Of a DNA stretch of 64,000 nt, positions 59,901 through 61,149 are shown piece by piece. Position 1 is the first letter of the stretch. The number at the start of each line of letters is the position of its first letter. Source of the stretch: Octopus vulgaris (Eukaryota). The stretch spans positions 108,190,001 to 108,254,000 of the forward strand of contig OX597816.1 in the NCBI GenBank assembly GCA_951406725.2, in the 5' to 3' direction. The translations under genes were made by a program, and so were the position numbers. The notes under the pieces were generated by a model, which worked only from the letters and a program-made list of their open reading frames with translations, had not been told where the DNA came from and made no database searches.

Positions 59901-59991
59901 CATTCCAGTTCTATATTTAAGATAAAATGAATTATGTATATTATTTACATTACTTACATTTGACGGATATTTGTCCTCATTTTTGTTGTTA

Positions 59992-60035
59992 ACACAACGT
60001 TTCGGCTGATATACCCTCCAGCCTTCATCAGGTGT
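59992..60035 (-). ncRNA. Minimal type-I hammerhead ribozyme, intact
   Basis: ACAC-CTGATGA-a-GGCTG-gagggtatat-CAGCC-GAAA-CG-TT-GTGT; loopless palindromic stem III (AACGTT). Confidence 0.85.
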
Positions 60036-60248
60036 CTTGGGGAAATTTCGAACCTGGGTCTCATTCCTAAGGTAATTTTTTCGATGTTGTTGTTGGTATT
60101 ATTATTATTATTATTATTATTATTACTATACTACTACTACTACTACTACTACTACTACTACTACTACTACTACTACTACTACTATTATTATTATTATTAT
60201 TATTATTATTATTATTATTATTATTATTATTATTATTATTATTGTTCA

Positions 60249-60321
60249 GGTCACTATCTGGAATCGAACTCGAAATCTTGGGGTTAGTATCCCGCGCTCT
60301 TAACCACTACGCCATATGCCC
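60249..60321 (-). promoter_or_regulatory. tRNA-like sequence with Pol III A-box and B-box (not a functional tRNA)
   Basis: gggcata-TGGCGTAGTGG-ttaagagcg...GAGTTCGATTCC-agatagtgacc; acceptor and T stems imperfect. Confidence 0.75.
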
Positions 60322-61149
60322 GTGGGCAATTATGGCTTATAAATCTGATATTCTCTTATCCTTTCTTATTACTGGTTGCCATATTCTGTTTATATCTGCA
60401 TTAGGTCTGCTTAGGAAGTTGTGCTGCTTCTTTTAGTTTTCGCATTTTCCATCACTTGCCCGAACAGTCATCCTACTGTAACAAATAGCTAGACGGGAAA
60501 CCAAAGGTAAAATGAGACGCTCAGGAGCTTGCATAGAAGATGCATACATCATCTACATCAATTACGATTACAGCATCATCAACAATATTAAAATGAAAAT
60601 CCATCAAACTTACAAAAATATTTTTTAAAAAAAAGTACCACTCTACTCAGAAATACCACCAACAGAAAAACATACTGTGACAGTAACACTGGCAACACAA
60701 ATGTTTACACTGAAAAACGATCTCTATCATCTGAGCAAAGAAATCAGCATTAACGCTGGTTCAAGAAACTAATATTTGAAAATAAGATTTTATGCGTTTA
60801 AGTCGTTAATCGTAAACTCTTTGAAAGTTGTGAAATATATACTTATTGGGTACTTTATAACAATTGTTAATTGCATTGTGTGTGTGTGTTTGTGTTTGTG
60901 TATGTATGTGTGTGTGTGTGTGTGTGTGTGTGTGTGTGTGTGTGTGTGTGTGTGTGATAAATAGATATCTAACGCGAAACTCTAAGCAATGGACTGAATA
61001 AACTCTAATATATATGTATGGATAAGTTAGAGTCGTATGATTGTATAAAGGTAAATTTATAAGGCAATGTAATTACAACATCGTTCTTTATGCTTTATTT
61101 TTATGTTTTTCCAATTTTACGGTATAATATTACATATTATAAGAAAAGT

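Follow-up and report, generated by a model that had tools for sequence, protein, structure and literature searches.

A tRNA-like head is a fixed part of the terminal repeat of an abundant Penelope-like element (PLE) family in the genome of Octopus vulgaris; as a feature of the family, this is confirmed. Judged from sequence, the head likely served as the element's own RNA polymerase III (Pol III) promoter. The favoured account, for which the chances appear evenly balanced, is that one Pol III RNA would run from the head through the open reading frame (ORF), and that internal starts of reverse transcription (RT) would give both the short SINE-like copies and the long ones. Falling a little short of an even prospect is the fuller claim: a coding, self-mobilising retrotransposon that captured a tRNA promoter, purged every terminator from its 2.5-kb ORF, is transcribed by Pol III end to end, and spawns its short copies from the same RNA.

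Anatomy of the window locus

The window, a 64,000-nt stretch of contig OX597816.1, contains on its minus strand a decayed, dead, 5'-truncated copy of this abundant Penelope-type retrotransposon family (Table 1). The first-pass annotation had placed here an endonuclease C-terminus ending at a stop codon, followed by a tRNA-like head, a spacer and a hammerhead; this order is confirmed, and all of the coordinates given for these parts hold. The end of the ORF (60451-60340) is identical to another copy, L052, at 106 of 121 aligned bases, with a 17-nt deletion that shifts the frame. Its last 31 codons match the C-terminus of the protein homologue P0001 (E 3e-4). The head begins at 60321, 15 nt past the stop, and this short gap is peculiar to the window copy, because 14 nt kept in copy L145 have been lost here. 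Also borne out is the lack of a run of four or more T (T4+) between head and ribozyme: in the window copy, the first TTTT 3' of the head lies at 59927, past the ribozyme. Family homology stops at 59906, and no target-site duplication is evident by eye at this copy.

Table 1. Features of the Penelope-type copy in the window, and host tRNA loci with a shared 3' flank
Feature	Position	Strand	Basis or remark
End of Penelope ORF, GIY-YIG endonuclease region, 5'-truncated	60340..60451	-	last 112 nt
ORF stop TAA	60337..60339	-	position common to family copies
Inverted repeat, imperfect, across head start	60312..60335	-	pivot of many fold-back insertions; predicted hairpin
tRNA-Arg-like head, 75 nt, likely Pol III promoter	60247..60321	-	tRNA alignment, own-tRNA profile, 5'-end pile-up
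A box of head	60314-60304	-	at +8
B box of head	60269-60260	-	at +53
(AAT)n/(TAG)n spacer	about 60246-60089	-	length varies among copies; 16-171 nt in others
Predicted ORF ATG (when the repeat is upstream of the ORF)	60062..60064	-	one base lost just 3' in window copy
Minimal type I hammerhead, in frame inside ORF start	59991..60036	-	predicted cut 59996/59995
AC-rich segment plus 9-nt repeat; site of the first 3'-end cluster, a likely first RT start	59937..59990	-	copy ends
30-nt Penelope tail; site of the second 3'-end cluster, a likely second RT start	59906..59936	-	copy ends, mirror insertions
tRNA loci with shared repeat-like 3' flank	L254, L258, L265, L269, L271, L272, L276, L279, L280		first 40 nt after tRNA match

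The open reading frame and its start

The alignment of the ORF comprises 841 stop-free codon columns. RVT_1 scores above cut-off in two of five pieces, and in copy L368 there are 568 stop-free codons from the RT to the endonuclease motif VYSIP..C..LYKGET, a motif read by eye; a Pfam search gave no GIY-YIG hit. Protein homologues number 147, the best at 53% identity. The traits of EN+ PLEs are present: a single ORF with RT and C-terminal GIY-YIG endonuclease; a minimal hammerhead in the pseudo-LTR (pLTR); and an inverted 5' copy with a one-sided tail of 30-40 nt. The identity of 40% to an Anolis protein and the C-terminal endonuclease are consistent with membership of the Penelope/Poseidon clade.

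Full-length copies have the repeat upstream of the ORF as well, in the order head, spacer, hammerhead, tail and ORF. There, the predicted ATG is the only in-frame ATG 5' of the conserved N-terminal motifs in L319, L326 and L318; the frame is open from this ATG through the hammerhead; and the 30-nt tail continues into the ORF. The homologue P0001 conserves the peptide encoded by the hammerhead (residues 18-32), with 43% identity over 235 residues. Because the frame is open and this peptide is conserved, what had been described as about 85 nt of terminal sequence is instead the start of the ORF, its first 165 nt. Since P0001, at 53% identity, keeps the peptide, the overlap of ribozyme and ORF is old in the lineage. 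An intron before the ORF, considered on account of splice-like motifs, was dropped because the frame is open and conserved across that stretch.

The head as a family feature

Exact 25-mers of the element are abundant in the genome: the hammerhead 25-mer has 4,705 matches, that of the B box 2,465, that of the head start 1,395 and that of the endonuclease end 456. The reversed controls gave 0 matches, so the occurrence of head and hammerhead is not due to chance. As 19 of 85 unselected arms carry the exact hammerhead 25-mer, these matches correspond to about 21,000 hammerhead arms in the genome; 400 kb of evenly spaced samples, with 4 loci, point to the same order. Long copies differ from the column mode by 3.6-7.9%, and none of those fetched contains a whole open ORF. 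Family sequence is present in sequencing runs under five organism labels, and contigs from three organisms bridge the tail-to-ORF junction and have loose ends at the head start. A protein search for other PLE families of the genome returned the head-bearing family in 30 of 30 matches, and no relatives were found among viral contigs in 28 pattern matches.

The position of the head was examined in three sets of copies, which overlap in part. It lies 3' of the endonuclease end in 24 of the 29 copies selected by the window tail; 3' of the same end in 11 of 13 copies that reach it among 20 selected by RT DNA; and 3' of the stop in 18 of 19 copies selected by a distant protein (30 examined). The repeat flanks the ORF on both sides in L325, L333 and L367, as pLTRs from partial tandem copies do, and the head is upstream of the ORF in L319, L326, L485 and L506. 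This recurrence of one junction in dozens of copies bears out the earlier claim that the head is part of the PLE pLTR.

Consistent with a further remark in the first-pass annotation, that the head is not followed by any SINE body found elsewhere in the window, no other body is shared among 70 head-anchored copies. The hammerhead body follows within 600 nt in 53 of these, further on in 4, and by its first bases in 2. In L111, L112, L161 and L190, the (AAT)n spacer is lengthened or interrupted, with the hammerhead body 560-1,220 nt from the head. Among homologous Penelope 3' regions of other hosts on metagenome contigs, the tRNA-like head is absent from all 44 (those of 80 homologues that reach the end of the ORF), with positive controls recovered in 6/6. 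One metagenome contig carries a tRNA-Thr (L432:879-953) 1.4 kb upstream of its homologous PLE match.

The head was compared with 25 distinct tRNA sequences from a partial set of 30 host tRNA genes. Among these 25, tRNA-Arg is the best match: 47/74 positions are identical to the genome's own tRNA-Arg TCT (z 7.2) and 46/74 to Arg TCG. A profile of the genome's own tRNAs scores the head at 14.6 bits. ARAGORN does not recognise the head as a tRNA, and Rfam recognises neither head nor hammerhead. The resemblance is one of sequence and not of fold; the cloverleaf is lost, which counts against the favoured reading. At most 48/75 positions are shared with the other tRNA-headed repeats of the window, making this a different head. 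The bases before it (60335-60312 on the minus strand, as at the L145 junction) can be read as its first ten bases in inverted orientation, interrupted by 2 inserted nt, and may be the fossil of a fold-back in the event that joined head and ORF.

Where copies begin

The 5' ends of copies pile up at the start of the head. In the order of the head-pattern list, 14 of 70 loci run on into the ORF for 38-988 nt (the doubtful L166 counted among them) and 56 do not. Two apparent duplicate pairs were counted as one copy each, leaving 68 head-anchored copies; of these, 54 terminate no more than about 13 nt from the head start, where the upstream break rate of 0.003 per nt would lead to 2.7. This set was chosen on an intact head start, and the count was repeated from two anchors further downstream. 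Of the 30 loci anchored on the B box, 23 stop in the interval -17 to +6, another 5 within the head itself, and 2 run on; three of the stops, those beyond -7, are fold-back arms, and two pairs of loci appear duplicated. Among 30 anchored on the hammerhead, the head is present in cis in 19, its start is reached in 13, and one continues. Upstream repeats that are attached to an ORF and reach the head number four, three of which stop at the head start while one runs past. Such a pile-up would mark either the start of the RNA or a block to RT.

An inverted piece is present at the 5' end in 48 of the 70 head-anchored loci. Of 22 two-armed mirror insertions, all but one of which are short, 20 carry the 30-nt tail on exactly one arm and none carries it on both; one-sided tails in two-armed insertions have been described for PLEs (PMC8557442). 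By this analogy the short copies appear to have been moved by the Penelope enzyme, which agrees with the earlier proposal of a PLE-mobilised short unit. As in SINEs, the short copies begin with a tRNA-derived head that contains an A and a B box; at the 3' end they carry the PLE tail. Descent apart from the autonomous partner, another trait of SINEs, is not seen: no diagnostic column among 200 separates short from ORF-attached copies after correction (the best, a CpG, has p 0.003), and a separate SINE subfamily, which was not found, is for this reason not needed. In L499, L516, L517 and L518, on two contigs, one rearranged junction joins an inverted tail to 126 nt of the ORF start, which suggests that the composite itself was amplified.

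Where copies end

The hammerhead consists of a 5-bp stem I, CUGAUGA, one unpaired A, a 5-bp stem II and GAAA, with a palindromic ACGU instead of stem III and a GUU cut site between 59996 and 59995. The window copy has it intact, and among 30 fully aligned copies 16 retain both core and stems. Its fold agrees with the dimer-type minimal hammerheads as described in the available text of PMC4209133, and cleavage is predicted to require a dimer or the help of a protein. The predicted cut falls after the ATG and would separate it from the ORF.

The hammerhead had been proposed to define the end of the mobile unit; it does not set copy ends or delimit the template. The 3' ends of 30 hammerhead-anchored copies lie 39-94 nt past the cut in 27 cases, and within 3 nt of it in one. 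They form two clusters: 14 copies end 39-67 nt past the cut (body position 130-158), and 13 end 91-94 nt past it (body position 182-185). Upstream repeats tell the same story, as none of 43 begins at the cut and 19 cross it. The head-to-tail arrays ending at a ribozyme cut that characterise retrozymes and Sm-alpha are not found, the copies being single or in mirror pairs. Among the RNA-seq joints listed, none is at the cut site.

The sense strand lacks runs of T

An alignment of 23 natural long copies covers the hammerhead body, the ORF and the sequence up to the head in 2,631 columns, with a median cover of 17. In the column mode of the sense strand there are 0 T4 runs and 30 A4 runs. The number of T4 runs expected is 4.7 upon base shuffling (P 0.007); 5.5 upon redrawing of third positions (P 0.0014); 4.5 under LINE codon usage (P 0.0046); and 3.0 under the strictest null, a synonymous shuffle with the element's own codons (P 0.026). 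Single copies contain 20 T4 runs at 17 sites, all private, each being present in at most 3 of 8-20 copies. Interrupted runs (T3VT2/T2VT3) are also low in the family (17 vs 42; 180 vs 113 in homologues).

The observed/expected ratio for T4 is 0.22 in the head-bearing family against 1.45 in 40 homologues of at least 1.5 kb, one of which has a lower ratio than the family. All 80 homologues together contain 525 T4 runs against 382 expected; four are free of T4, all of them short or T-poor, and these were counted on the opposing side. Five LINE ORFs of the genome have 1.7-5.3 T4 runs per kb, and chance fragments of other PLE families have 19 in 4.6 kb (L310 and L331, which are one place, counted once). 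Within 40 nt of host tRNA genes, a T4+ run is present in 23 of 30, and in 9 of these T4 is the first run. Against an effect specific to T, G4 runs are scarce too, with 0 in the columns and a ratio of 0.26 vs 0.58 in homologues. A bias of TTC over TTT for Phe is weak, not significant (p 0.06), and present in the control LINE as well. The lack of T runs is to be read as one family-level observation; the copies are not independent, and the pattern was noticed before it was tested.

RNA data

Three RNA-seq runs from a related or identical organism, of which 6% of each read set was mapped, placed 6,905-9,642 reads on a 561-nt copy. Neither strand has more reads than the other, 85-89% of the reads continue into sequence that does not match the copy, and depth at the ORF start is below 20-fold. 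There is no pile-up of starts or ends, although a start could not have been seen in fragmented libraries. This pattern is that of passenger transcription of old copies inside host transcripts, and it neither shows nor excludes a Pol III RNA.

A proposed single RNA and its alternatives

From the observed anatomy, end distributions and lack of T runs, we infer the polymerase, the single RNA and, by analogy to PAc, the RT entry sites. Pol III would start near the first base of the head; this is proposed because A and B boxes lie at tRNA spacing and terminators are missing. Meeting no terminator, it would transcribe the whole ORF and enter the second repeat. RT by the element's enzyme would begin inside this RNA, at two sites bounding the tail. 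A start in the first repeat would give 300-bp SINE-like copies that end at the 5' end of the RNA, where synthesis would often fold back on a hairpin; a start in the second repeat would give long copies like the window locus, which extend into the endonuclease and break off at random. With one RNA and two RT entry regions, a separate SINE master would not be needed. The first-pass annotation had set an internal promoter for the PLE against a ready-made PLE-mobilised SINE; probably both apply, a single RNA giving rise to the two products. Counting against this reading, Pol III transcripts carry no cap, and the translation of such an RNA into protein is a step that it does not explain.

One possibility, which we consider unlikely though worth serious weight, would be that the head is a working Pol III promoter for the short SINE-like copies only. 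The long RNA and the protein would then come from Pol II, and the lack of T runs would be a mere by-product of the A-richness of the strand. Short transcripts suffice for the pile-up of 5' ends, the translation problem is avoided, and spliced transcripts of Drosophila Penelope and of Chlamys-3 start in the pLTR (PMC8557442). In line with such a division, short copies are slightly less diverged than ORF-attached ones (6.0% vs 7.1-8.0%, p 0.06) and keep the CpG of the B box in 50/55 cases vs 14/23, a difference that is not significant after 200 tests. A by-product sits poorly, however, with 0 T4 runs in 2.6 kb where 3.0-5.5 are expected and with the shortage of interrupted runs. Nor is there a subfamily-defining change between short and long copies, and of the four upstream repeats that are attached to an ORF and extend to the head, three end where it begins.

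The head could also be an inert, captured tRNA or SINE fragment, the template being a Pol II or circular PLE RNA on which RT stalls and snaps back at the inverted repeat; we regard this as rather improbable. The predicted hairpin across the head start (-8.7 to -9.7 kcal/mol, and -9.7 in L145) is among the strongest locally and could stall the enzyme, which speaks against a transcription start, and it is the pivot for many short copies. Fold-back occurs at the body palindrome too (L214/L215), and three of the 14 long copies end at -63 to -67, right before a further hairpin. Yet at -101 and -367, where hairpins are as strong or stronger, no more than 3 of 14 copies stop, as against 54 of 68 at the head, and several copies join at -1 to +6 via microhomology, leaving the hairpin unused. 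The upstream half of the hairpin, moreover, resembles an old fold-back of the head's first ten bases. The A and B boxes are as far from the break as they would be from the start of a tRNA, and stalling leaves the lack of T runs unexplained. The refuting case named in the first-pass annotation, in which an ordinary SINE would have inserted just once, into the Penelope fragment of the window locus, might be suspected from the deletions near the junction of this copy. It has practically no chance of being correct: other copies of the PLE carry the head at the same junction, dozens of times over, and the 70 head-anchored copies, 53 of which have the hammerhead body within 600 nt, share no body of another kind.

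Relation to known elements

As described in the available text of PMC11167929 and PMC8557442, EN+ Penelope/Poseidon PLEs such as PAc of Anolis carolinensis likewise have a single ORF with RT and C-terminal GIY-YIG. PAc-type PLEs also resemble the octopus element in that the ORF starts inside the terminal repeat with the hammerhead over its first codons; two 3' ends bound a 30-40-nt tail; 5' copies are inverted; and no ends lie at the cut (PMC11167929, PMC8557442). For PAc, it is reported that the ORF starts in the hammerhead, that RT in vitro starts internally at two tail-bounding sites, that uncut RNA is the main substrate, and that cutting needs protein (PMC11167929). Unlike these elements, the octopus repeat has a tRNA-derived A/B-box head, an (AAT)n spacer, 5' ends piled at the head and a T4-free sense strand; the available portions of PMC11167929 and PMC8557442 make no mention of a tRNA-type head. 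The ribozyme shares with metazoan PLE minimal hammerheads (Cervera and de la Pena 2014, PMC4209133) a short stem I, an unpaired base before stem II, a palindromic ACGU for stem III and predicted dimer-only cutting. Set beside the hammerheads in the text available from PMC4209133, the ribozyme itself is no different, and its setting behind a Pol III-type head is new.

Animal non-LTR retrozymes are, like the short octopus copies, short non-coding hammerhead derivatives of PLE terminal repeats (PMC7229834, bioRxiv 10.64898/2026.07.22.740005). Retrozymes form head-to-tail arrays that are cut to circles (PMC7229834), whereas the short octopus copies are monomers or mirror pairs starting at the tRNA head. 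A term search of the text available for bioRxiv 10.64898/2026.07.22.740005 found neither 'tRNA' nor 'Pol III'. Cassandra, Helenus and Ajax have a small-RNA-derived Pol III promoter within the terminal repeat, as here, but are non-autonomous LTR elements, while the octopus element is a PLE that encodes its own enzyme (PMC10886601). The schistosome repeats Sm-alpha and Sj-alpha combine a Pol III-type promoter with a type I hammerhead in one short repeat; according to the available text, they are tandem, non-coding and ribozyme-cut to monomers, with no autonomous partner shown (PMC6765202, PMC8490949). In contrast to Sm-alpha, the octopus unit is the terminal repeat of a coding element, it is dispersed or head-to-head, and its copies ignore the cut.

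The octopus SINEs OR1, OR2 and OK, reportedly described by Ohshima and Okada in 1994, are said to have tRNA-derived heads of tRNA-Arg origin, and by that description they resemble the present element in having a tRNA-derived head in octopus. OR1 and OR2 are CORE-SINEs (PMC4824008, PMC4758252), whereas the Penelope head is followed directly by (AAT)n and the start of a PLE ORF. Octopus repeat papers, in a term search of their main text, do not describe a head-bearing Penelope, and PMC13343379 makes no mention of tRNA or Pol III. Neither a PLE with a tRNA head nor a coding retrotransposon under one was found in the main text of the papers searched. The parts are known separately: PLE hammerheads, PLE-derived retrozymes, the Pol III promoter and hammerhead of Sm-alpha, and Pol III promoters in non-autonomous LTR elements.

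For autonomous retrotransposons the accepted polymerase is Pol II, or Pol I by read-through in the case of R2, and Pol III is associated with non-coding SINEs. If the favoured reading is correct, a coding element with a tRNA promoter and a terminator-free ORF would break this Pol II/Pol III split. The pile-up of 5' ends would provide a probable transcription start for the Penelope class, in which promoters are, to our knowledge, known for very few members. Penelope elements would gain a SINE-like partner of visible origin, the short copies being the terminal repeat itself, and with it a direct route from an autonomous element to a SINE. The copy ends supply genomic data on a hammerhead that does not delimit the template. 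At about 20,000, the hammerhead arms are a sizeable share of the genome's repeats, which annotation may split between 'SINE' and 'Penelope'. The favoured reading would also raise the question of translation from uncapped RNA; according to the available text of PMC13725137, R2 protein is made from RNA that lacks a cap and has been cut by a ribozyme, and cleavage by a hammerhead can initiate cap-independent translation.

Other repeats and tRNA genes

Further tRNA-like SINE heads lie on the plus strand of the window at 44367-44426, 55360-55404, 23058-23119 and 55796-55828. The one at 44367 is identical to the Penelope head at 48/75 positions and may share its origin. A fragment of a different Penelope-like family is present at 57728-58002 on the minus strand. 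Elsewhere in the genome, seven tRNA-Cys-like genes or pseudogenes lie inside 3 kb (L256:138-2854). A single repeat-like sequence recurs within about 10-25 nt downstream of nine tRNA genes of several isotypes, out of the 30 host genes (Table 1), as if one repeat family inserts at tRNA terminators.
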